A stretch of 13,883 nucleotides of DNA from a virus. The notes under the pieces are model-generated. The model did no database searches, had not been told where the DNA came from, and saw nothing but the letters and a program-made list of their open reading frames with translations. The DNA is taken from the UHGV virus genome UHGV-0131300, one strand, 5' to 3'. Every line of letters starts with the position of its first letter. Within the stretch, counting starts at the first letter, position 1. The position numbers and the translations under genes are program-made. Shown here in pieces: positions 186 through 10,264 of this stretch.

Positions 186-228
186 TTATCATGAGCTATC
201 ATAACGACGCAATAAAGCGCACAATATG

Positions 229-281
229 CGTGTACATAGAGGTGTACATAATGACTTTCATGTACATTGCTTTATGTACAC
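229..281. promoter_or_regulatory. Cluster of four TGTACA palindromic repeats (integrase arm-type or autoregulatory sites) overlapping the int promoter
   Basis: TGTACA at 231..236, 243..248, 261..266 and 275..280, directly upstream of the int start at 310. A CATAAT -10-like hexamer sits at 247..252. Confidence 0.5.
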
Positions 282-309
282 ACCCATATTCGATATTCAG
301 GTATTCGCA

Positions 310-1569
310 ATGCCAAAACTCACAGATATGCAGATCCGCGCATGGATAAAGGCGGGAGACAGATTTGATGGCAAGGCAGACGGCAACGGCCTTTATATTT
401 GCTACCCCAAAAACTACACAGCCCCGTTCTGGCGATTCCGCTATAAGCTCGCAGGAAAGCAGCGGGCTATGGTTATAGGCTCTTACTCCGAACTGTCACT
501 ATCAAAAGCCAGAGAAACAGCAAAAGAGCTGTCAGCCAGAGTTGCTCTTGGCTATGACGTAGCAGCAGAGAAACAGGAACGAAAAGCTGAAGCACTGGCA
601 AAAATGGAGGCTGAGAAAAACGCCATGCGTGTTTCAGATCTGGCCTCCGAATACTTCGAGCGCCAGATACTTCCGAGATGGAAACATCCCGATATCCTTC
701 GCCGGAGAATTGATAAGGATATTAACCCCTGCATTGGGCATATGAAGGTAGAGGACGTTAAGCCACGCCACATTGACGACATGTTGAAAGGTATCGTTGA
801 CCGAGGAGCACCAACGATAGCAACAGATGTATTACGCTGGACACGCCGTATCTTTGACTACGGGATAAAACGCCACGCTCTGGAGATAAACCCTTGTTCA
901 GCGTTTGAAGTATCTGATGCTGGTGGTAAAGAGGTTTCCCGCGACCGTTGGCTAACTCGCGATGAGCTTATCAGGCTATTCGAGGCTATGCGCACCGCAA
1001 AAGGATTCAGCCGCCAGAACGAACTGACATTTAAGCTATTGCTGGCACTATGCGTTCGTAAGATGGAGTTATGCGCCGCACGATGGGAAGAGTTTGATTT
1101 AGATGGTGCGGTATGGCATTTGCCGGAAGAACGCAGCAAAAACGGAGACCCTATTGATATACCTCTACCTTCCCCAGCCGTTGAATGGTTGAGAGAGCTA
1201 CACACCTTTTCATGTAATAGCGCATGGGTGCTTCCAGCCAGGAAGATGCAAAACAGAATGATCCCACATATTCAGGAAAGCACTTTGCCCGTAGCACTGG
1301 CTAAGGTTCGCGCCGAAATGCCGGATGTGCCTAATTTCACGATTCACGACTTCCGACGCACCGCACGTACTCATTTAGCAGCGTTGGGTGTTGATCCTGT
1401 CGTGGCGGAACGATGCCTCAATCATCGCATTAAGGGCGTAGAGGGGATTTATAACCGCCATCAGTATTTTGATGAGCGTAAAGCAGCACTGGCACAGTGG
1501 GCTGATCTGCTGGTGGCACTGGAAAGCGGAAAAGACTACAACGTAACGCCTCTCAGAAGGGCGAACTAA
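310..1569 (+). CDS. int: Tyrosine site-specific integrase, P4-like family
   Basis: N-terminal arm-binding-like region (LTDMQIRAW...GLYICYPKNYTAPFWRFRYKLAGKQRAMVIGSY). C-terminal catalytic motifs HDFRRTARTHL (HxxR) and LNHRIKGVEGIYNRHQY (catalytic Tyr). Start moved to ATG 310 in the 226..1569 frame, because the first 28 codons overlap the repeat/promoter region. Confidence 0.9.
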   Translation: MPKLTDMQIRAWIKAGDRFDGKADGNGLYICYPKNYTAPFWRFRYKLAGKQRAMVIGSYSELSLSKARETAKELSARVALGYDVAAEKQERKAEALAKMEAEKNAMRVSDLASEYFERQILPRWKHPDILRRRIDKDINPCIGHMKVEDVKPRHIDDMLKGIVDRGAPTIATDVLRWTRRIFDYGIKRHALEINPCSAFEVSDAGGKEVSRDRWLTRDELIRLFEAMRTAKGFSRQNELTFKLLLALCVRKMELCAARWEEFDLDGAVWHLPEERSKNGDPIDIPLPSPAVEWLRELHTFSCNSAWVLPARKMQNRMIPHIQESTLPVALAKVRAEMPDVPNFTIHDFRRTARTHLAALGVDPVVAERCLNHRIKGVEGIYNRHQYFDERKAALAQWADLLVALESGKDYNVTPLRRAN

Positions 1570-1664: not shown

Positions 1665-2630
1665 ATGAACGACTCTCATGAAACAACAGTGGTGCATAGA
1701 AATTTATGGCAGGAATCAGGTATTCCACCTTTGGACTACTGCACGATAGAGCGAGCATCAAAATTATTAAATTGTGAAATTGATGATATATGGCATTGGA
1801 AAGATAGACTACATATAGACTTTTATGTCTATGCTGACTTTCTTGATTTCATTGAATCTGATGCCACCATCCACTTCAAAAAAGATGCTAATTTTATAAC
1901 TGATTTATTACTTATGTACCCAGAAGAAGTAAGGTTTACATTTCCTTTTCTTATTACCAGCGCAAGCAACGAAGTTTATATCCCAGCATCTGAAAGCGGT
2001 GCTTATGAGCTATTTTATGCACATAAACCACTGACAGTTGAAGACAGCGACAATAAAAATGTTTTTGAACAAATTGGCAAAAACTCTTTTATTGTAAGAA
2101 AATCAATTGCATGTGGATTGTTGCGTGTACGCGGTAGAACAACACGACATTATCATTCACAAGAATGTGGAGAACCATATGTGCGACTTGAAGCAACATT
2201 TGATTGTGATCTATATAAATTCAAAATGCAAAGTTCCCAAATTCACCTGAGTAGCCTGTCAGATAAAAACATTTATATAACAAAGGCTGATTTAGAATAC
2301 CTTCATGACGCAAAGGTTAATGGAAGTTTTGACGCAGCTAAGAGCAAAAAACGATACGAAATGGCGGTAGAACAGGAACTAATACCTGAAATAAAAAATA
2401 GCAACCATAATGCCGAGAGACATGCTGAAAACAGGGAAAAACTTTTCAAATCTGCAATATATCTTTTGTCAAAGTATCCTGATGAATGCCGTGGCAAAAA
2501 GAAAGAAATAAGCCCTGAGAAGTGGCGGGATTGCATAGTGGCTCATAAAGACGAAATTCCACCGTTAGCAATCACAAATGAAGATGTGATTTTGAGACAC
2601 TTACGTGCTGCCGCCAACGGTAAGGGGTAG
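1665..2630 (+). CDS. Hypothetical protein, AT-rich orphan cargo gene between int and alpA
   Basis: 321-aa ORF with an SD-like aaggtg upstream and its own intrinsic terminator. Visibly AT-rich and rich in Lys/Asn/Ile/Tyr codons compared with its neighbours. No motif I can assign with confidence. Confidence 0.7.
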   Translation: MNDSHETTVVHRNLWQESGIPPLDYCTIERASKLLNCEIDDIWHWKDRLHIDFYVYADFLDFIESDATIHFKKDANFITDLLLMYPEEVRFTFPFLITSASNEVYIPASESGAYELFYAHKPLTVEDSDNKNVFEQIGKNSFIVRKSIACGLLRVRGRTTRHYHSQECGEPYVRLEATFDCDLYKFKMQSSQIHLSSLSDKNIYITKADLEYLHDAKVNGSFDAAKSKKRYEMAVEQELIPEIKNSNHNAERHAENREKLFKSAIYLLSKYPDECRGKKKEISPEKWRDCIVAHKDEIPPLAITNEDVILRHLRAAANGKG

Positions 2631-2744: not shown

Positions 2745-2948
2745 ATGAACACCGACACTATTCCTACAAAAGGCTATATCAGACGCTTCCGCCTGGCTGA
2801 ATTGCTGGGCGTTAGTGTATCCACCATCGACCGTAAAGTAAGAAACGGTTCACTACCACGTCCGGTAAAGCTGGGAGAAAAAATAACTGCGTTTGATGCG
2901 GTTGAGATTCACAACTGGCTGGCAGAACGCCGCGGGAAGGTGGCCTGA
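2745..2948 (+). CDS. alpA: AlpA-family DNA-binding regulator / excisionase-like protein
   Basis: 67 aa with the pattern FRLAELLGVSVSTIDRKVRNGSLPRPVKLGEKITAFDAVEIHNWL, typical of AlpA/Xis HTH proteins; sits immediately after the int module. Confidence 0.8.
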   Translation: MNTDTIPTKGYIRRFRLAELLGVSVSTIDRKVRNGSLPRPVKLGEKITAFDAVEIHNWLAERRGKVA

Positions 2949-3379
2949 TGGAAAAGAAAAACCGCCCATTACAGGCGGCTAATTCAGATATTCGCGTATC
3001 TGATGTTACGCCCCTGACAAAATCCCTTCAAGCACCAAAGCGCACACCGAAAAAGCATCGTGCCAGAGTCTATATGCTGCGTACTGGTATAGAGGGATGG
3101 ACAGAAAATGACATTCTTCGCTACTGCCGTCTGTCTTCTGGTCGTAACTATGCAACAGAGTTAGAACGCCAGCTTGGAATCACTCTGGAGCGTATCGACG
3201 AAAAGAATCCTGATGGTATCGGAACACACCTTCGCTACCGTTTCTCCTGCCGTGGTGATGTTCTGAAAGTGATCACTCATGTTAACCATCTTGCGAACAT
3301 AAATGATCACAACGGACTTTCTCAGCAGGAAATTGCCGACATTCTGAAACTCTACCCGAACGCGTTTAACGCCGCCTAA
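2948..3379 (+). CDS. Hypothetical protein (143 aa), basic N-terminus
   Basis: ATG overlaps the alpA stop (TGATG), indicating translational coupling. No recognisable motif. Confidence 0.6.
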   Translation: MEKKNRPLQAANSDIRVSDVTPLTKSLQAPKRTPKKHRARVYMLRTGIEGWTENDILRYCRLSSGRNYATELERQLGITLERIDEKNPDGIGTHLRYRFSCRGDVLKVITHVNHLANINDHNGLSQQEIADILKLYPNAFNAA

Positions 3380-3391
3380 CGGAGACTGAAA

Positions 3392-4225
3392 ATGAACATC
3401 GAAAAAAGCAGATTAATTTCTGAGGCCGCCCCTCATCTGAACGCCTCTCTGGGCACAATTAACGGTAATGAATTTGCCGCAATTGTCCCGGTTATTCCTG
3501 GTCATATCGGTGGGCGTGAAACCAATATTGTTAGCGCAAAAGCGTTACACAAAGCGTTGGGCGTGGGAAAAGACTTCTCTACATGGATCACTGATCGCAT
3601 CTCTGAATATGACTTCACCATTGGGCACGATTACTCAGTCCATAAAACAATTTCCCCAAATTTGGGGAAAAGCCCGAATGGCGCGGCTTACAGCAAGATA
3701 AAGCACTCTGGCAGACCCGGCAAAGACTATCTGTTAAGTGTCGGAATGGCGAAAGAACTGGCAATGATCGAACGCAATGATCAGGGTCGCGCTATCCGCC
3801 GTTATTTCATCCAGTGCGAGGAAGAATTACAGCGTACCGTGCCTGAAATCGCCGCCCGCTATCGTCGCCAGCTAAAAGCCCGTATCAGTGCCGCAAACAA
3901 CTTTAAGCCAATGTGCGATGCGCTGAATATGGCCCGTGCCGAGCTGGGTAAAACGACGCAGCAGCGCCACTACAGCAACGAGAGCAACATGATCGCCCGT
4001 ATCGTGCTGGGTGGCATGACGGCAAAGCAGTGGGCGCAGGCAAATGGCATTACTGGCGAACCACGGGACAGCATGAACGCAGCACAGCTTGAACACCTCT
4101 CCTATCTGGAAAGCACCAATATCACGCTAATTGAGCTGGGGCAGGACTACGACCAGCGCAAAGCTGAATTAATACGACTGTCTCAGCGCTGGCTGGCGAA
4201 GCGTATGAGGGTAAGCCATGCGTAA
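3392..4225 (+). CDS. Phage antirepressor-like protein (AntA/Rha-type N-terminal domain)
   Basis: GGAG SD 7 nt upstream. N-terminal segment SAKALHKALGVGKDFSTWITDRISEYDF...DYLLSVGMAKELAMIERNDQGRAIRRYFIQCEE resembles antirepressor N-domains. Confidence 0.6.
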   Translation: MNIEKSRLISEAAPHLNASLGTINGNEFAAIVPVIPGHIGGRETNIVSAKALHKALGVGKDFSTWITDRISEYDFTIGHDYSVHKTISPNLGKSPNGAAYSKIKHSGRPGKDYLLSVGMAKELAMIERNDQGRAIRRYFIQCEEELQRTVPEIAARYRRQLKARISAANNFKPMCDALNMARAELGKTTQQRHYSNESNMIARIVLGGMTAKQWAQANGITGEPRDSMNAAQLEHLSYLESTNITLIELGQDYDQRKAELIRLSQRWLAKRMRVSHA

Positions 4226-4400
4226 CCAAAACCCCCAGCCGGGAAGCCGTTACAAGGATTCTCACGGGGCTGTAGTGACCGTTGAGCGCGTCGAGCATAA
4301 CCGAGTGACCTTTTACCGCGAGGGCTATCAGTCGCCATGTGTTCAGCCTTTGGAGAGATTCGTTAATGAGTTCGTGGAGGTGCGCCGTGATACTGAATGA
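4218..4400 (+). CDS. Small hypothetical protein (60 aa)
   Basis: ATG 4218 overlaps the end of the preceding gene (stop 4223..4225). Confidence 0.5.
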   Translation: MRNQNPQPGSRYKDSHGAVVTVERVEHNRVTFYREGYQSPCVQPLERFVNEFVEVRRDTE

Positions 4401-4840
4401 ACCTGCCGCCCAGAAAGAAGCCTTTAATCTGGCTGGCCTGTTAGCAAATGTTAACCCTTACAACCTGTCAAAACCTGACATTCATCGCCGCGCCGTTGCG
4501 ACAAATGACGACATTTTAGAGGCGTTTTCTGGGCTGAGAATTGGGCTGCGAATCCTAATAAATCCTAAGTTTTTTTCGCATTTCGTGACCAGTACGCGCG
4601 AGAAAGTTTTTTCTGACAACACTACGCCAGTGGAAAATTATTCCGCTGTCTTGAGTTTTCGGAGCATTACGCGCCCGTCTGGGGAGTTTTCGGACTATGT
4701 AAAAAAGGGCAGTACCTACAGGTCAGACCACCAGCAGGAAAATCAGTGTTATAGTCCCAGTGTTGCTGCAAAATCAGCAACCGGGCGTGGAAACCCGAAC
4801 ACACTCAGGGCGACACAGACGCCGAAAGCGTCTTTTTTTG
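4401..4840 (+). ncRNA. Candidate non-coding regulatory RNA or leader region ending in an intrinsic terminator
   Basis: No credible coding signal despite an open frame. Direct repeat gagttttcgga at 4653..4663 and 4684..4694; hairpin gttgctg/cagcaac at 4762..4781; terminator gacgc-cgaaa-gcgtc plus T7 at 4818..4839. Confidence 0.35.
4818..4839 (+). terminator. Rho-independent terminator inside the non-coding region
   Basis: gacgc (4818..4822), loop cgaaa, gcgtc (4828..4832), then ttttttt (4833..4839). Confidence 0.75.
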
Positions 4841-5028
4841 TGTCCGTTCACTACGCACATCAAATCAGCGGCCTCGTCCGTACTGTATCTATGGTGGCGT
4901 TAGTGGGGCTACGTTCGCGTAGGCCGGTTTCCTTTGTGTCCGGTATTTCCACCCCTGCTAACGTCACCGCCATTTCAGAGCGTGGAAACTCAGGCGGTGA
5001 CTCCTTAAACACAAAGGAGGCTGCCATC

Positions 5029-5217
5029 ATGGCTACTACCCCTACCCAAAATCCACAATTTATCTGGTTAATCGCAGCCGTTCGCCGCGACATGCCGACA
5101 ATTACCGCCAAAATCCATCATGTTGCTGCCGAAAGCGAGCGCGAAGCACGTCAAACTCTGGCACGAGATCACGTCTGTTTCTTTGCAGGCCGCATCCGTC
5201 TGGAGGTGGCAGCATGA
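5029..5217 (+). CDS. Small protein (62 aa), first gene of the replication operon; possibly Icd-like
   Basis: Strong SD aaggagg (5014..5020) 8 nt before ATG 5029. The upstream part of the 4339..5217 frame crosses a terminator and is rejected. The Icd-like family assignment is low confidence. Confidence 0.65.
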   Translation: MATTPTQNPQFIWLIAAVRRDMPTITAKIHHVAAESEREARQTLARDHVCFFAGRIRLEVAA

Positions 5218-5411
5218 GCCGTGAACTCACCTTAGAGCAGGCCGCAGAACGCGCGCACCAGACTGAAATAATTGCCCGTCTGGTTGAAGACTTCCCCCAT
5301 CACCTTGCCGATAGCGAAGTATCCGCAATCGCCACTCCGCTAAAGCGCCTTTCCGGTGACGTTACCGCATGGCTGATTGAAGAATTGGCAGAACGGGAGG
5401 GGAAGCGATGA
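5214..5411 (+). CDS. Small hypothetical protein (65 aa)
   Basis: ATGA start/stop overlap with the preceding ORF; ggagg SD at 5202..5206. Confidence 0.6.
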   Translation: MSRELTLEQAAERAHQTEIIARLVEDFPHHLADSEVSAIATPLKRLSGDVTAWLIEELAEREGKR

Positions 5412-5587
5412 AACAGGGACTAAGCGTTAGTGAAGTAATGTGCAGAATCCAACAGGCGCAGACCGTCCTCACCATGTGGCTTCACACCATGACCACCGAC
5501 GACGGGGAAGCGCCCGATATGGTGGATGCGGTGCTGACAATCTTAGACGGGCTGGCCGATGCGCTGGCAGTGGAGAGTGACAAATGA
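5408..5587 (+). CDS. Small hypothetical protein (59 aa), absent from the supplied ORF track; paralog of the next gene
   Basis: ATGA overlap at both ends (5408 and 5584). Translation MKQGLSVSEVMCRIQQAQTVLTMWLHT... shares the C-I---AQ-VL-MWL motif with the 5584..5805 product. Confidence 0.55.
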   Translation: MKQGLSVSEVMCRIQQAQTVLTMWLHTMTTDDGEAPDMVDAVLTILDGLADALAVESDK

Positions 5588-5805
5588 GCCAGTTACAACT
5601 GATTGATGCTGCCTGCCAGATTGAACCGGCACAGGCTGTTTTATCCATGTGGCTGGAGAGCACCAACAAAGACACTAGCCCCGACCTTCCGCGTCTTATC
5701 GGTTCAATCCTCACTTTGCTGCATGGCGTCCCGGAGGCAATGGAAGAAGCCGAAAGCAAGCTGGCTGACTATGTGATGCGTGAATATCGGGAGGGCAAAG
5801 CATGA
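5584..5805 (+). CDS. Small hypothetical protein (73 aa)
   Basis: ATGA overlaps on both sides; paralogous to the 5408..5587 product. Confidence 0.6.
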   Translation: MSQLQLIDAACQIEPAQAVLSMWLESTNKDTSPDLPRLIGSILTLLHGVPEAMEEAESKLADYVMREYREGKA

Positions 5806-6428
5806 GCAATATACTGACCATTAAACCGGGAAATCCCGACCTGTTCCACGCCGAAGCCACACCGCACGGCGTCAATATCATGACCCGCAATGATGCCGGG
5901 ATGTATGAGCATGTTTGCCTTGTTCCCTATTCAGACGCGGTAACTCATCTCGATAGCGGCAGGTATGACGACATCCCTGATGAAGGATTTACCCTGCATC
6001 TGGCAGTGGCTGACGGCGGGGAGCGTGGCTGGTTCGACTTCACCGCGCAGCATAACGTCACTATGTGGCGCTGGCTGATTGCTGCGACGTTCGTTTCTGA
6101 GATGAAGCGCGAGAACGGCACCACCACGGTTACTGAGGCTGACGGCACATCATCGCAGGTGGCGATTTACTCCAATGGTAATGCGGGCATGGTGGTTTAC
6201 CCGTTTGCTGAACGGCTGGCGATGGCGAACAACATCGAGGGCGCAATGATTGAGCGCTACGGCGTTGAGCAGGGAACAGAGAACGCCATTGTGTTCTACC
6301 GCGCCATGCTGGATACGGAGCGCGGCGAGCTGACCCCGTTCGGACGTGAAACGCTGGCAGAGCTACACGATCACTTCATTGCTGATCTGGATGAAAACGG
6401 CTGGCCTGAAATGCCAGCGGCGCACTGA
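5802..6428 (+). CDS. Hypothetical protein (208 aa)
   Basis: ATGA overlap with the upstream ORF; gggagg SD. No recognisable motif. Confidence 0.65.
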   Translation: MSNILTIKPGNPDLFHAEATPHGVNIMTRNDAGMYEHVCLVPYSDAVTHLDSGRYDDIPDEGFTLHLAVADGGERGWFDFTAQHNVTMWRWLIAATFVSEMKRENGTTTVTEADGTSSQVAIYSNGNAGMVVYPFAERLAMANNIEGAMIERYGVEQGTENAIVFYRAMLDTERGELTPFGRETLAELHDHFIADLDENGWPEMPAAH

Positions 6429-6437
6429 GGGGGCGAC

Positions 6438-6779
6438 ATGATTACCAAAAACTTCCGACTGAATGCGCTGGCGAACCAGTACGCGGCGGCACTTTACAAC
6501 CACATCACGGCTATCAATGGTGGCAATTACTTCATGGTTGACGCGGCAGGCCAGCAAATCCGTGTGGAACTGGTGGGCGGTATCAGTGGCACGCGCCAAC
6601 TTATTGATGGTTACGCGCTCGAAGCACTCAAAGAGACATACCCTCAGTGGGAAAGCATCGGGATCACCATGCTGGAGAAATGCGTCAATGCTGGTGGCCT
6701 GACTGATACCGGGCGCGAGATATGGCAAAGCATGATTAATGATATGGGCGCGACCGTGGCAGGAGGCAACCATGCGTAA
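6438..6779 (+). CDS. Hypothetical protein (113 aa)
   Basis: gaggggg SD; its stop overlaps the primase start (ATGcgTAA). Confidence 0.6.
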   Translation: MITKNFRLNALANQYAAALYNHITAINGGNYFMVDAAGQQIRVELVGGISGTRQLIDGYALEALKETYPQWESIGITMLEKCVNAGGLTDTGREIWQSMINDMGATVAGGNHA

Positions 6780-9213
6780 TATCGACCTTATCCGCGAAGT
6801 GACCAGCGCCGCAGCAGGGCGCTGGCCTTATGTGCTGGCTGGCCTGTCTATCGACGTGCCTGATTCATCACGCCGTCATGCCCCCTGCCCTGCATGTGGC
6901 GGTACGGATCGCTTCCGGTTCGACGACAACGGTCGCGGTAGCTTTATCTGTAACCAATGCGGCGCGGGCGACGGCTTAGACCTGATTAAGAAGGTGAACA
7001 ACTGCGACACCACAGAGGCGGCACAGCTTGCCGCTGATGTGCTGGGTATTGATTACCGGGCAGCGCAAACCGACCCGGCGGCAGCGAGCCAGAGAAGGGA
7101 GCAACTGGAAGCTGACCGCCAGCAGCGTGAGCAGGAGCGCCAGCAACAGGCAGCAGATGACGCAGAGCAGCGAAGGGCTACGTTTGCCCATCTGTATGCC
7201 GGAATGCGCCAGAGTGCCACACAGGGCGAATCTGATTACCTGCAATCAAAAGGGCTGACCGGGTTTAACTATCCGGTTATGCCGGATGGTTCGTTATTGC
7301 TGGAGCTGGTGGACGAATCCGGCGCAGTGGCAGCAGCGCAAACCATTACACCGCAGGGAGAGAAGCGACTCCTGACAGGTTCAGCAAAGCGCGGGGCATA
7401 TCACGCCGTAAACGCGCCAGAATCGCCGCAGAGCGTTTTAATTGCCGAGGGGCTGGCGACGGCCCTTTCAGTTCACCTGATGCGCCCGGACGCGCTGGCA
7501 GTGGCAGCAATTGACGCGGGCAACCTGCTACCCGTTGCCGAAGTGATGCGCCGGATATATCCAGCCACGCAGATTATCATTGCCGCAGATAACGACCACC
7601 AGCAGGACGAACAGGCGAACACGGGCAAAGATGCCGCAGAGAAAGCCGCCTTATCCGTGGCTGGCTGGGTGGCACTGCCGCCGACAGACTACAAAGCCGA
7701 CTGGGACGACTACCGCCAGCAAAACGGGCTGGAAGTCGCTACGGCTGCGTTTAACGATTCGATGTACCAGATTCAAGGGGAAGCCGTGAAACCGCGATTG
7801 CAAGCCATTGAGGGCGGTAAATCCCGCCGTAAAGCCGATGTCGGAGATATTGCACAAATGGCAGCCAGCCAGAAAGCGCGGTTGCTTTCATCTCGATGGG
7901 ATATGTTGGCGGTTAACCCTGATAGTGGCACTGTTTACTGCTACGAATCTGGCGTATGGGTGAAGCTACCAGACAGCGAATTAGAAAGGGTTATGGTGGC
8001 AATTTTCGACGAGCACGAAGCCCACTACACCGAAAAGGGGATTAAATCGGTTGTCGCAACCATGAAGCTGCAAATACCGGTAATTGGTGAGCGGAGCGGG
8101 GATCTGATTGGTTTTGATAACGGCGTTTATGACCTCGCTACGCAGACGTTTTCCGCCCATTCGCCGGGTAACTGGCTGATGAACCACAATGGGATCACCT
8201 ACACCCCGCCAGCGCCGGGGGAAAATATTACCACCAGCGCCCCCAATTTTACCCGTTGGCTGAATCATGCAACGGCTGGCGACCATCATAAGGCCGAGCG
8301 TATCAAAGCAGCCTTGTTTATGGTGCTGGCGAAGCGTCACGACTGGCAGCTATTCATTGAGATAACTGGCGAGGGCGGTAGTGGGAAATCCGTATTCAGC
8401 AGCATAGCAACCACGCTGGCAGGTGAACACAACACCGCCAGCGGTAGCATGATGACGCTGGACACCGCACGGGGACGGGCGCAGTTCGTAGGAAAAAGCC
8501 TGATTATTATGCCTGACCAGACCCGCTATGTTGGAGAGGGTGCGGGGATTAAAGCCATTACGGGCGGCGATCCGGTAGAGATTGATGGGAAATATGAAAA
8601 GCAGTTCACAACCGTGATAAATGCCGTTGTTATGGCAACCAATAACGAGCCGATGACATTCACGGAGCGAAACGGGGGCATTGCCCGCCGCCGCGTGATA
8701 TTCCCGTTTAATAACCCGGTATCAGACGCAGACAAAGACCCGGATTTAACCGCAAAAATCAGGCGAGAAATCCCGGTGATTATCCGCCACCTGCTAACCA
8801 CCTTTGCCGACCAGAACAAAGCAAAGTCACTATTACTTGAGCAGCGCGATTCTCAGGAGGCGCTAGACGTTAAACGCGGCACAGATCCGGTTATCGATAT
8901 GTGTGCGGCACTTTTTTTCATGAACGAACCCAAAGGCATGATGATGGGCGGAGGTACATGGGCAGGCCAGCCAGAGCCTAGGACGTATCTTTATCATCTT
9001 TATCTGGCGTTTATGGAGTATCACGGTTTGGGTAAACCGCTTTCCGTCAATAAGTTTTCACGCGCCATAAAATCAGCAGCAAAAGAGTACCGAGCCAGCT
9101 ACCTGACGAGAAGCATTAACGGCAGAGCGCAAACCAACGTTGGCTATAACGAGAAGGCTGAGGAGTTCATGCCACGCGCTTACGGTGTGGAGAGCGGGCA
9201 GAGTGATGATTGA
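6772..9213 (+). CDS. DNA primase-helicase, P4 alpha-like (zinc finger, TOPRIM-like region, D5-type NTPase)
   Basis: Zinc finger CPACGG...CNQCG near the N-terminus; acidic IIIAADNDHQQDE segment; Walker A ITGEGGSGKSVF; Walker B-like SLIIMPDQ. AGGAGG SD at 6761..6766 favours ATG 6772 over the track start at 6739. Confidence 0.9.
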   Translation: MRNIDLIREVTSAAAGRWPYVLAGLSIDVPDSSRRHAPCPACGGTDRFRFDDNGRGSFICNQCGAGDGLDLIKKVNNCDTTEAAQLAADVLGIDYRAAQTDPAAASQRREQLEADRQQREQERQQQAADDAEQRRATFAHLYAGMRQSATQGESDYLQSKGLTGFNYPVMPDGSLLLELVDESGAVAAAQTITPQGEKRLLTGSAKRGAYHAVNAPESPQSVLIAEGLATALSVHLMRPDALAVAAIDAGNLLPVAEVMRRIYPATQIIIAADNDHQQDEQANTGKDAAEKAALSVAGWVALPPTDYKADWDDYRQQNGLEVATAAFNDSMYQIQGEAVKPRLQAIEGGKSRRKADVGDIAQMAASQKARLLSSRWDMLAVNPDSGTVYCYESGVWVKLPDSELERVMVAIFDEHEAHYTEKGIKSVVATMKLQIPVIGERSGDLIGFDNGVYDLATQTFSAHSPGNWLMNHNGITYTPPAPGENITTSAPNFTRWLNHATAGDHHKAERIKAALFMVLAKRHDWQLFIEITGEGGSGKSVFSSIATTLAGEHNTASGSMMTLDTARGRAQFVGKSLIIMPDQTRYVGEGAGIKAITGGDPVEIDGKYEKQFTTVINAVVMATNNEPMTFTERNGGIARRRVIFPFNNPVSDADKDPDLTAKIRREIPVIIRHLLTTFADQNKAKSLLLEQRDSQEALDVKRGTDPVIDMCAALFFMNEPKGMMMGGGTWAGQPEPRTYLYHLYLAFMEYHGLGKPLSVNKFSRAIKSAAKEYRASYLTRSINGRAQTNVGYNEKAEEFMPRAYGVESGQSDD

Positions 9214-9530: not shown

Positions 9531-9833
9531 ATGAATACAGAAACCAGCCAGAAAATGACCTATCAGGAGCGTGAAGCATTGAAGGGGTTTACTGACAAAC
9601 GCGCATTACAGGGCGACACCCAAAGCCTGCAAATGACCTTGAGGATGATCGCCCACTGGATGAGGCAGCCAGCAGAAATTGGATTTACAGAATATGCAAC
9701 ACACTGGACGGCGGCACAGGCCGGACGTGATGACGGGAATCACTCGACCGCAGCAATGGCGGAGCAGTGGCCTTTAAGGGAAGAAATGAAAATTAGCCCC
9801 GGAGGTAGTGACTACATGAGGAAATATCTATGA
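9531..9833 (+). CDS. Hypothetical protein (100 aa)
   Basis: Start chosen at ATG 9531 (aagg SD) rather than the track start at 9468, which lies in the iteron/hairpin region. Stop overlaps the next start. Confidence 0.5.
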   Translation: MNTETSQKMTYQEREALKGFTDKRALQGDTQSLQMTLRMIAHWMRQPAEIGFTEYATHWTAAQAGRDDGNHSTAAMAEQWPLREEMKISPGGSDYMRKYL

Positions 9834-10264
9834 CAGCACAAATTTCAGCATACGGGCGGCTGGTGGCAGATCCCCAGACCCGCACCACAACGAACGGTAA
9901 CAACATGGCTATGGCGCGGCTGGCGGTGTCTCTCCCCTGTAATGCGGCAGAGGCGGGAGAGTCAACCTTCTGGCTGGGCGTTATTGCTTTTGGGAAGCAG
10001 GCCGATGCGCTGGCGAAGCACCAGAAAGGCGACCTTGTGAGCGTGGCAGGCAATATGCAACTCAACCAGTGGACAGGGCAGGACGGCGGTACACAGCAGG
10101 GGTATCAGGTAGTAGCCGACAGTGTGATCAGCGCCAGAACGGTACGCCCCGGCGGGAAGGCAGGACAGCGGGGACAGGCAACGGACGCGCTGAGACGTGC
10201 GCAGCAGCCATCCCGTGATGAATACGACCAACGCCCACCATTCGACGATGAAACGCCATTCTGA
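9830..10264 (+). CDS. Single-stranded DNA-binding protein-like (OB fold with SSB-type acidic C-terminal tip)
   Basis: N-terminal region is alignable with bacterial SSB (GRLVADPQTRTTTNGNNMAMARLAV...FWLGVIAFGKQADALAKHQKGDLVSVAGNMQLNQWTGQDG). A Gly/Gln-rich linker ends in PPFDDETPF, compared with DFDDDIPF in E. coli SSB. Confidence 0.8.
   Translation: MTAQISAYGRLVADPQTRTTTNGNNMAMARLAVSLPCNAAEAGESTFWLGVIAFGKQADALAKHQKGDLVSVAGNMQLNQWTGQDGGTQQGYQVVADSVISARTVRPGGKAGQRGQATDALRRAQQPSRDEYDQRPPFDDETPF

Follow-up and report, generated by a model that had tools for sequence, protein, structure and literature searches.

In satellite phage P4 the immunity region consists of PLE, seqA, cI (seqB), seqC and kil, nested in eta, followed by epsilon and the alpha primase, and the immI operon of P1 and P7 is ordered a1 b1, c4, a2 b2, icd, ant. 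The C4 RNA of such systems is released from a longer transcript by processing, which involves RNase P in P1 and P4. The model of eta and kil in P4 reportedly goes back to work by Forti and colleagues in 1999. As set out in one more account, eta is coupled to the alpA homologue and its translation prevents termination, with kil nested inside it (PMC10111431). A third relative is the isrK-orf45-anrP locus of Gifsy-1 in Salmonella, where the IsrK RNA has a promoter of its own, demonstrated with reporter fusions, and a leaky terminator, where the read-through mRNA represses itself through a pairing of the b1-b' type, and where translation takes place in an ORF that lies across the C4 homologue and varies in amino-acid sequence (PMC4825925).

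We analysed positions 4401-5028 of a 13,883-nucleotide stretch of viral DNA (UHGV-0131300, hereafter the window). Our results make it very probable that a P4-like satellite island controlled by AlpA has its immunity switch here, built like the PLE-seqA-cI-seqC-kil series nested in eta of P4, and that two small RNAs of known families keep the replication genes of this E. coli island off. The switch in this island is a further example of a known system. What carries the assignment is RNA family membership, complementarities and their co-variation, homology to P4, and an open frame conserved without amino-acid constraint. Among 5426 complete E. coli genomes, 925 carried a match to the region. The original prediction had placed here a regulatory RNA upstream of a replication operon, with premature termination, and the Rfam matches given below identify an antisense RNA and termination system of the P4 kind. 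Every repeat, hairpin, terminator and Shine-Dalgarno sequence that it listed was recovered in place (Table 1): the hairpin with a 7-bp stem, the terminator stem with the T run behind it, the UUCG hairpin, which falls within the 4906-4924 proposed for it, and the Shine-Dalgarno sequence, 8 nt ahead of the ATG at 5029. Its statement that the sequences are not P4-like, on the other hand, has to be abandoned, since P4 has isrK and C4 matches in the same order as the window and behind a -10 box, its Kil protein is homologous to that of the window, and window positions 4922-5047 align to the P4 cI region (blastn).

Table 1. Features in and around positions 4401-5028 of the window.
Feature	Position	Strand	Remarks
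Ribosome-binding site and start of eta-like frame	4376-4389	+	GGAGG (4376-4380) and GTG start at 4387; read from sequence
Eta-like reading frame	4387-5217	+	276 codons; spans promoter, both RNA elements and leader; in phase into kil/icd
11-bp direct repeat GAGTTTTCGGA	4653-4694	+	two copies, at 4653 and 4684, 31 nt apart
Candidate constitutive promoter (P4 PLE equivalent)	4747-4755	+	extended -10 box TGTTATAGT; hexamer 4750-4755; predicted start ~4762
IsrK/P4-seqA-like RNA	4762-4838	+	Rfam isrK; terminator included
Hairpin 1 of IsrK-like RNA	4762-4781	+	7-bp stem
Hairpin 2 of IsrK-like RNA	4782-4797	+	loop carries b1, GTGGAAA, 4787-4793
Degenerate a1	4799-4809	+	after hairpin 2
Intrinsic terminator	4817-4838	+	stem 4817-4833, U run (T7) to 4838; terminator scan
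C4/P4-CI-like antisense RNA	4887-4974	+	Rfam C4; basal stem around two hairpins
ATG in eta frame	4891	+	place deduced for the orf45 start in Gifsy-1; at 5' edge of C4
UUCG hairpin in C4	4909-4922	+	fold
Loop a' of second C4 hairpin	4928-4939	+	fold; pairing segment 4930-4939
b' of C4	4946-4952	+	single-stranded; fold
Alternative hairpin	4963-5001	+	inverted repeat; 3' strand of C4 basal stem and leader
b2 target GTGGAAA	4982-4988	+	leader of kil/icd
a2 target ACACAAAGGA	5009-5018	+	overlaps Shine-Dalgarno AAGGAGG, 5014-5020
kil/icd-like gene	5029-5217	+	62 aa; NCBIfam phage_ICD_like; P4 Kil homology
Candidate Rho loading site	5040-5117	+	composition scan only
P4-family primase	6739-9213	+	Zn_Ribbon_Prim, Toprim_3, D5_N, DUF5906, Pox_D5; in replication operon

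The order of the elements is the same in the window and in P4, for which record X02534 gives an isrK match at 2379-2456 and a C4 match at 2564-2651. In both, the whole module is covered by a long frame that shares the phase of kil and carries a Phage_ASH match. The kil/icd product of the window has a phage_ICD_like score of 73.7 bits (NCBIfam NF033153; cut-off 25) and shares 43% identity with P4 Kil (E 2e-10). The module is preceded by an AlpA-family gene and followed by a primase of the P4 family, the latter labelled "phage/plasmid primase, P4 family" by PGAP. The window departs from P4 in that a hypothetical gene, antA/B and DUF4222 stand between alpA and the long frame, in the length of that frame (276 codons against 197), in the spacer from IsrK to C4 (48 nt against 107 nt), in its a' sequence (ACACAAAGG against TTCACAGG) and b specificity (GTGGAAA against GTGAGAA), and in its degenerate a1; no epsilon homologue was recognised downstream in the window, and the small ORFs between icd and the primase gave no Pfam matches.

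With immI of P1 and P7 the window shares a C4 RNA with a' and b', and targets situated upstream and across the ribosome-binding site of a gene in the icd family. In contrast to the window, a P1-like plasmid has a broken frame through the module and its icd is followed by a Rha/Ant-type gene. The antirepressor homologue of the window, AntA/B, is encoded upstream (3392-4225), and the gated operon is one for replication; a coupled antirepressor gene 3' of icd, as in P1 and P7, is absent, with the small ORFs and the primase in its place. Gifsy-1 resembles the window in its IsrK RNA, in the self-repression of its read-through mRNA, which for the window is predicted, and in an open frame across C4 whose amino-acid sequence is not conserved. 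It differs in that orf45 ends at the start of the antirepressor gene and that the output is an antiterminator cascade, whereas the frame of the window continues into kil/icd and also reaches far upstream of the promoter.

To assign RNA families we ran a permissive Rfam search over 4200-5300 and took as criterion a covariance-model score above the curated gathering score. This yielded isrK (RF01394, 4762-4838; 72.1 bits against 50, E 3e-15), c4-a1b1 (RF03163, 4749-4801; 54.9 bits against 46.7, E 7e-13) and C4 (RF01695, which includes the P4 CI RNA; 81.1 bits against 45, E 4e-16), the last matched over the full model (1-87), and no further RNA family in the interval searched. The minimum-energy and centroid folds of the C4 RNA both reproduce the family consensus (-38.9 kcal/mol, z = -4.75). 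Taken alone, the simple terminator scan was not significant (3 sites against 1.6 expected).

The candidate promoter is recognised from its position among relatives. Its -10 hexamer precedes the isrK match by 6 nt in 13 of 13 loci, P4 included, reading TATAGT both in the window and in P4 and TAnnnT in the other loci (for example TATATT or TATGGT), and the P4 record annotates a -10 box at the equivalent place (2367-2372). The promoter scan found no match to a -35 box upstream of this hexamer, and the consensus scan did not call the promoter. The only call of the promoter scan was a weak site at 4613-4641, which is unsupported by relatives and was discarded.

Two repeats that had escaped the original prediction define the pairing sites. 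One is an inverted repeat between a' and a2, complementary at 10 of 10 nt and overlapping the Shine-Dalgarno sequence of kil/icd; the other is direct, GCGTGGAAAC at 4785 and again at 4980, and makes the b1 of the hairpin 2 loop identical to b2; b' is complementary to both over 7 of 7 nt. The predicted duplex of the window with its own leader reaches -24.5 kcal/mol, against -13.5 to -21.9 with the leaders of other loci. When 13 loci were compared in a 13 × 13 matrix the cognate duplex was the most stable in 11 rows, a non-cognate leader scoring lower than the cognate one in the rows of L125 and L128. Covariation analysis of homologous regions had been proposed as a check on the original prediction, and the pairing sites do co-vary across 49 distinct modules. 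These hold 19 types of a' and 9 types of b', and the pairing of b' is perfect with b2 in all 49 and with b1 in 48, while a' and a2 pair over at least 9 nt in 46, non-cognate pairs averaging 3-4.5 nt. The b sites have co-varied even between near relatives (window against L002, L124 and L130). In the window, a1 and a' are complementary over 5 contiguous nt, with 3 more past an internal loop; a pairing of at least 8 nt, 8 being the usual length, is found in 38 of the 49 modules. Since a1 is degenerate in this lineage, the contribution of the upstream site may differ from that in P4.

Folding of the 284-nt read-through RNA (-107.4 kcal/mol, z = -4.16) predicts that a' and the Shine-Dalgarno sequence join in a helix of 14 bp, which buries the latter. 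The same fold contains an alternative hairpin, in which GTCACCGCC (4963-4971), the 3' strand of the C4 basal stem, pairs with GGCGGTGAC (4993-5001) and leaves b2 in the loop. This hairpin and the C4 stem are mutually exclusive. Of 55 modules, 54 have a complementary pair of arms of 6-11 nt, the arms coming in 16 different sequences, and a limited literature search returned no published description of the hairpin.

The region had been described as 630 bp of non-coding DNA with a long open frame that was not credibly coding. The first description was not confirmed, the entire stretch being a single open frame in phase with the downstream gene; of the second, what survives is that the amino-acid sequence is not under selection, while the frame itself is the counterpart of P4 eta and is widely kept open. 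It starts inside the 3' end of the DUF4222 gene (stop 4398-4400), PGAP (NCBI) places its start at the identical position in strain ECONIH4, and in L130, a relative, start and upstream stop codon overlap. The arrangement is common to 11 of 13 loci, and among 64 distinct IMG/VR modules 54 have the frame open. Indels within it are multiples of three, and the seven classes of spacer length are all congruent modulo 3; nine broken IMG/VR cases have, every time, an ATG offset of 106 instead of 107, and the frame is also broken in P1-type modules. Substitutions upstream of 5029 are evenly spread over codon positions, with pN/pS of 0.35-1.07 in four pairwise comparisons, which are not a formal codon model. 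Over 4747-5028 the counts at the three positions are 6/10/9, 8/11/10, 2/6/8 and 42/37/44 (pN/pS 0.35-0.88). In icd, substitutions fall mainly on the third position (for example 4/8/28; pN/pS 0.14-0.20). As the frame is kept open but without codon bias, its translation, and not its protein, appears to be what is selected. In its upstream part (4401-4746) the frame exceeds that of most relatives by about 250 nt, and descent or chance could account for some of this part being open. Column-wise codon variability across the IMG/VR classes was also tried and set aside, since a lack of homology among the upstream parts made it too noisy. A scan of genome contigs with the hairpin-1 pattern returned mostly Pseudomonas loci and chance matches in ABC-transporter genes; its sole use was to show that neither spacing nor frame is conserved in the family at large.

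The two direct repeats that had been cited as evidence for regulation proved, on comparison with relatives, to lack a conserved role. L002 and L131 lack the first copy of the 11-mer and a hairpin at 4628-4648; they carry a 72-nt in-frame deletion, keep the frame despite it and have the same RNA module. The repeat region folds no better than shuffled sequence (z = -0.4 to -0.5), and the repeat, considered as a possible operator or iteron, is lineage-specific, with no role found. We rejected a structured RNA in 4401-4760 (z only -0.4 to -2.1; conserved only in near relatives, with the 72-nt deletion in one of their stretches). The 10-mer TTTGTGTCCG, present at 4837 and 4933, was considered as a functional duplicate of a'. 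Its first copy is the conserved tail behind the terminator, TTTTTTTGTGTC, which is kept, or occurs as a variant in T-run length, in 11 of 13 loci, the other two being more diverged at this point, and which is independent of the type of a' loop; its second copy is the a' loop of this lineage. The repeat is therefore coincidental.

How such a module would work can be proposed by homology with P4, from which transcripts, RNA processing, dependence on Rho and translational override are all extended to the window. In the quiescent island, transcripts would begin at about 4762 from the constitutive promoter within the long frame, and most would end at the terminator to give an IsrK/SeqA-like RNA of about 77 nt. 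Read-through RNA would hold the C4/CI-like RNA, which would be excised and accumulate. Pairing of a' and b' with a2 and b2, within one molecule or between two, would then bury the ribosome-binding site of kil/icd, and the untranslated RNA would be terminated, probably by Rho at a C-rich stretch just 3', so that the replication operon stays off. A candidate for Rho loading, on its base composition, is 5040-5117, the most C-rich and G-poor 78-nt segment between 4760 and 6500 (C 36%, G 14%). On transcripts from the internal promoter the kil/icd-like gene would be the first to be translated, and it would act as the gate to replication genes further along the operon. Upon induction a helper phage would turn on the upstream alpA operon, that is alpA, the hypothetical gene, antA/B and DUF4222, whose genes overlap or lie 12 nt apart. 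Ribosomes would pass from this chain into the eta-like frame at its GTG, and translation would run through the terminator, C4 and the target sites, blocking RNA structures and Rho, so that the replication genes are expressed despite immunity. The eta-like frame thus presumably serves to carry ribosomes across the switch on transcripts from the alpA operon. We give about even chances to a stricter version, in which the Ash/Eta frame is kept free of stops and frameshifts only for the transit of ribosomes and the alternative hairpin chooses between forming C4 and displaying b2.

The long frame could also be explained in two other ways, of which the better one, that it encodes a functional Ash/Eta protein such as a DNA-binding regulator of the Bro network, with the RNA motifs merely embedded, seems to us improbable. 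Besides the wide conservation of the open frame, such a protein would account for the Phage_ASH match (Pfam PF10554; 84.4 bits against a cut-off of 26) and for the match to PHROG 6928 ("transcriptional repressor", E 1e-32), and eta has been treated as a gene of the Bro network (PMC10111431). The Pfam match, however, covers amino acids 138-238 counted from a GTG at 4339, that is nucleotides 4750-5052, which is exactly the span of the RNA module, and it does likewise in P4 eta; the N-terminal 120 amino acids have no family match in Pfam or PHROG, P1-type modules do without the frame, and the even spread of substitutions stands against the third-position bias of icd. That same spread, over 4401-5028, is what could be said for a purely non-coding leader with an accidentally open frame, as originally proposed. 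We regard this as very unlikely, given that one given frame stayed open in only 9 of 20000 simulated sequences of the same composition (a chance of about 5e-4), that independent lineages with non-homologous spacers retain the frame, and that it has a strong ribosome-binding site and a start overlapping the upstream gene.

A more serious rival, possible but in our view doubtful, takes the IsrK-type activation of Gifsy-1 as the main logic of the module. The terminated RNA would here be an intermolecular decoy for a' and b' that opens the self-repressed read-through mRNA for translation from the ATG at 4891 or from kil/icd, so that the upstream element would induce instead of aiding repression. 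This is compatible with the main model and agrees with the strength of the isrK match, terminator included, with the predicted self-repression of the read-through RNA and with an in-frame ATG at the edge of C4, where Gifsy-1 coordinates put the start of orf45; IsrK supplied in trans in Gifsy-1 raised downstream translation more than 100-fold through a pairing like that of b1 and b' (PMC4825925). Yet the duplex with the IsrK-like RNA of the window itself (-22.3 kcal/mol) is barely off the non-cognate values, because a1 is degenerate, the sequence ahead of 4891 offers no ribosome-binding site, and the equivalent upstream site of P4 aids termination, as summarised in PMC4825925. The degenerate a1 would also fit a relic in decay that no longer serves this island, which may be defective, as we recognised neither capsid nor packaging genes in the window. 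We hold this to be slightly less probable than a functional Ash/Eta protein: the frame, the -10 box, the terminator, C4, b1, b2, a2 and the Shine-Dalgarno sequence have all stayed intact, 8 genomes share an identical module and dozens more have one that is over 90% identical, and its b sites have co-varied among near relatives.

We therefore return to the P4-like immunity switch and to how it appears in current annotation. The same stretch is labelled in different records as a 276-aa "Icd-like protein", as an "ash family" pseudogene or as an extension of a Rha protein, and both RNAs are unannotated in all records carrying these labels. A census of P4-like satellites uses PF10554 as its marker for epsilon (PMC8628076). 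In P4 this profile matches eta, which holds the RNA module, while epsilon itself matches PF25738, a difference that matters for satellite censuses. If the frame is indeed kept open only for the transit of ribosomes, PF10554, PHROG 6928 and the long "Icd-like" genes of PGAP would be shadows of conserved RNA elements. Finally, the a and b sites occur in 30 combinations among the 49 modules, and this number suggests a two-part immunity code, which may set which satellites exclude one another.

An E. coli satellite island makes up the window, and all of its genes lie on the + strand. Eight complete genomes match it at 100% identity over 4401-5028; in one of them, ECONIH4, the island sits between yicC and dinD. 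ECONIH4 carries an ISSpu7-family insertion (locus L001, 5535-7145) between the hypothetical gene and alpA; the window has no such insertion there (2631-2744) and therefore comes from another carrier of this island. The gap between the integrase and the next gene holds an int-alpA motif (Rfam RF02996, 1578-1644), which scores 60.6 bits where the threshold is 35.8 and is a second known RNA motif of such islands.

Genes and RNA elements of the window, and stretches compared by codon with four relatives (substitutions at codon positions 1,2,3)
Feature	Position	Strand	Rfam covariance model score (bits)	Substitutions	pN/pS
Integrase	226-1569	+			
Hypothetical protein	1665-2630	+			
AlpA-family regulator	2745-2948	+			
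Hypothetical protein	2948-3379	+			
AntA/B antirepressor	3392-4225	+			
DUF4222 protein	4218-4400	+			
Probable RNA switch region	4401-5028	+			
c4-a1b1	4749-4801		54.9		
isrK	4762-4838		72.1		
C4	4887-4974		81.1		
Icd-like protein, 62 aa	5029-5217	+			
Small ORFs	5214-6779	+			
P4-family primase	6739-9213	+			
SSB	9830-10264	+			
Codons: upstream part	4401-4746			9,7,10; 8,8,7; 31,24,36; 11,12,13	0.58-1.07
Codons: RNA module	4747-5028			6,10,9; 8,11,10; 2,6,8; 42,37,44	0.35-0.88
Codons: icd	5029-5214			2,3,17; 4,8,28; 4,8,29; 3,8,23	0.14-0.20

Rfam covariance models with curated thresholds gave three matches above threshold in this region. The original prediction had listed direct repeats, hairpins and an intrinsic terminator here, and each is present where it had been placed: the 7-bp hairpin corresponds to IsrK hairpin 1, the terminator to that of IsrK, and the UUCG hairpin to the first of the two inner hairpins in C4, which adopts the family consensus fold (z = -4.75). 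A terminator scan alone found 3 sites against 1.6 expected, not above chance. The further claim that these sequences are not P4-like is wrong. P4 (X02534) has the same isrK (2379-2456) and C4 (2564-2651) matches, directly behind its annotated -10 box (2367-2372); blastn aligns window 4922-5047 to this isrK/C4 region, and the 62-aa protein is 43% identical to P4 Kil. At 4750-4755, 6 nt ahead of the IsrK element, the window reads TATAGT with TGT just before it; P4 likewise has TATAGT at the equivalent place, and the remaining loci examined have TAnnnT hexamers at equal distance.

In P4, the leader transcript is processed to the CI RNA, which pairs with seqA and seqC, leading to premature termination (PMC4825925; PMC10111431). 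The eta frame starts upstream of the internal promoter, is coupled to an alpA homologue and contains the nested kil gene, and termination is prevented when eta is translated (PMC10111431). The window's long frame matches this arrangement, and both frames read through without a stop codon and give a Pfam Phage_ASH match. The P4 scheme, in which C4 RNA would pair with the leader to shut the kil/icd ribosome-binding site, is the best reading of the region and is likely.

Site a' of C4 (TCCTTTGTGT, 4930-4939, in the loop of its second hairpin) is fully complementary to ACACAAAGGA at 5009-5018 (a2), which overlaps AAGGAGG, the Shine-Dalgarno sequence for the gene that begins at 5029; in the predicted fold of the 284-nt read-through RNA, a' buries this Shine-Dalgarno in a 14-bp helix (z = -4.16). 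Site b' (TTTCCAC, 4946-4952) is single-stranded, and its complement GTGGAAA occurs twice: as b1 (4787-4793), looped out in IsrK hairpin 2, and as b2 (4982-4988) in the leader. Across 49 distinct modules of IsrK, C4 and leader (19 a' types, 9 b' types, 30 combinations), b' pairs over 7/7 nt with b2 in all 49 and with b1 in 48, while a' pairs over at least 9 nt with a2 in 46 and at least 8 nt with a1, its IsrK target, in 38; non-cognate pairings average 3-4.5 nt. Among the window's close relatives b1, b' and b2 have changed jointly (GTGGAAA, GTGAGAA, TTTGCAC), and a1 is degenerate in the window lineage (ACACACTCAGG versus ACACAAAGGA). In a 13-locus matrix, C4 forms its most stable duplex with its own leader in 11 of 13 rows, a non-cognate leader being lower for L125 (E. 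coli 2015C-3121) and L128, another of the 13 loci; the window's cognate duplex reaches -24.5 kcal/mol, against -13.5 to -21.9 with other leaders. In an alternative pairing at 4963-5001, the basal stem of C4 could give up its 3' strand to the leader just past b2. Complementary arms of 6-11 nt are present in 54/55 modules, with 16 different arm sequences, and this hairpin is possibly a switch that either lets C4 form or puts b2 in a loop.

A single open frame (4339/4387-5217) takes in the whole region and runs in phase with kil/icd; the ribosome-binding site (GGAGG, 4376-4380) and GTG start (4387) of this long frame overlap the end of the upstream gene. One given frame stayed open in 9 of 20000 simulated sequences of equal composition. 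The arrangement is shared by 11 of 13 loci (E. coli genomes and P4), and IsrK-to-C4 distances of 125, 128, 101, 185 and 101 nt are all congruent modulo 3; a P1-like plasmid has 123 nt and stop codons in frame. Of 64 distinct IMG/VR modules, 54 keep the frame open for 357 nt or more ahead of the ATG, the hairpin-to-hairpin distances fall into seven classes (141 to 201 nt), each a multiple of three, and the nine modules with a broken frame each have an ATG offset of 106, not 107. An accidental long frame is highly improbable, and a module surviving as a relic is quite unlikely. The window's upstream open stretch (720 nt) is the longest in the sample (typically 360-456 nt), and no function was found for the extra length.

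The codon statistics say that the long frame is not a protein. Its Pfam Ash match (PF10554) spans nt 4750-5052, exactly the RNA module, and a search with its first 120 aa gave no family match; the amino-acid sequence thus seems to drift within a frame that is maintained open. A functional Ash protein, as the PF10554 match would have it, is unlikely. A study of Gifsy-1 reported a like case in orf45, which conserves nucleotides, varies in amino acids and needs to be translated (PMC4825925); by its coordinates, orf45 appears to overlie the C4 homologue. Activation by a short RNA, as in Gifsy-1, is a tentative second layer, compatible with the P4 scheme. PF10554 coincides with the RNA module in P4 too (L123, 2367-2741); a census of P4-like satellites took this family as the epsilon marker (PMC8628076), and P4 epsilon itself matches PF25738. 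A lambdoid prophage (L129) is a further instance of a frame, or an annotation, crossing the module: its 383-aa "Rha family" gene (1037-2188) runs through isrK (1397-1473) and C4 (1498-1585).

The region has matches in 925 of the 5426 E. coli genomes, and only 4748-5028 is widely conserved; 4401-4747 is common only to near relatives at the identical chromosomal site. Two relatives (L002, L131) have an in-frame deletion of 72 nt in this stretch, which takes out a hairpin at 4628-4648 together with the first of the two 11-bp repeat copies. A block of about 35-40 nt at 4405-4445 (GCCGCCCAGAAAGAAGCCTTTAATCTGGCTGG) is near-identical in L124, a relative otherwise unrelated in flanking upstream sequence, and could mark either a recombination joint or a site not yet recognised. 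L125 has two C4 matches (1643-1730, 2133-2220) and two tandem "Icd-like" genes, and looks like a duplicated immunity module. Among the genome contigs (L003-L122), Pseudomonas very commonly shows the a1b1 hairpin pattern with a C4-like hairpin behind it, often without a U-run terminator and with spacings in all three phases.

The region clearly belongs, on good evidence, to a known regulatory system, noted earlier in satellites of the window's type (PMC10111431), and the switch is recognisable by standard RNA family models. The new points are a frame seemingly selected for translation, not for protein, and the co-varying alternative hairpin.
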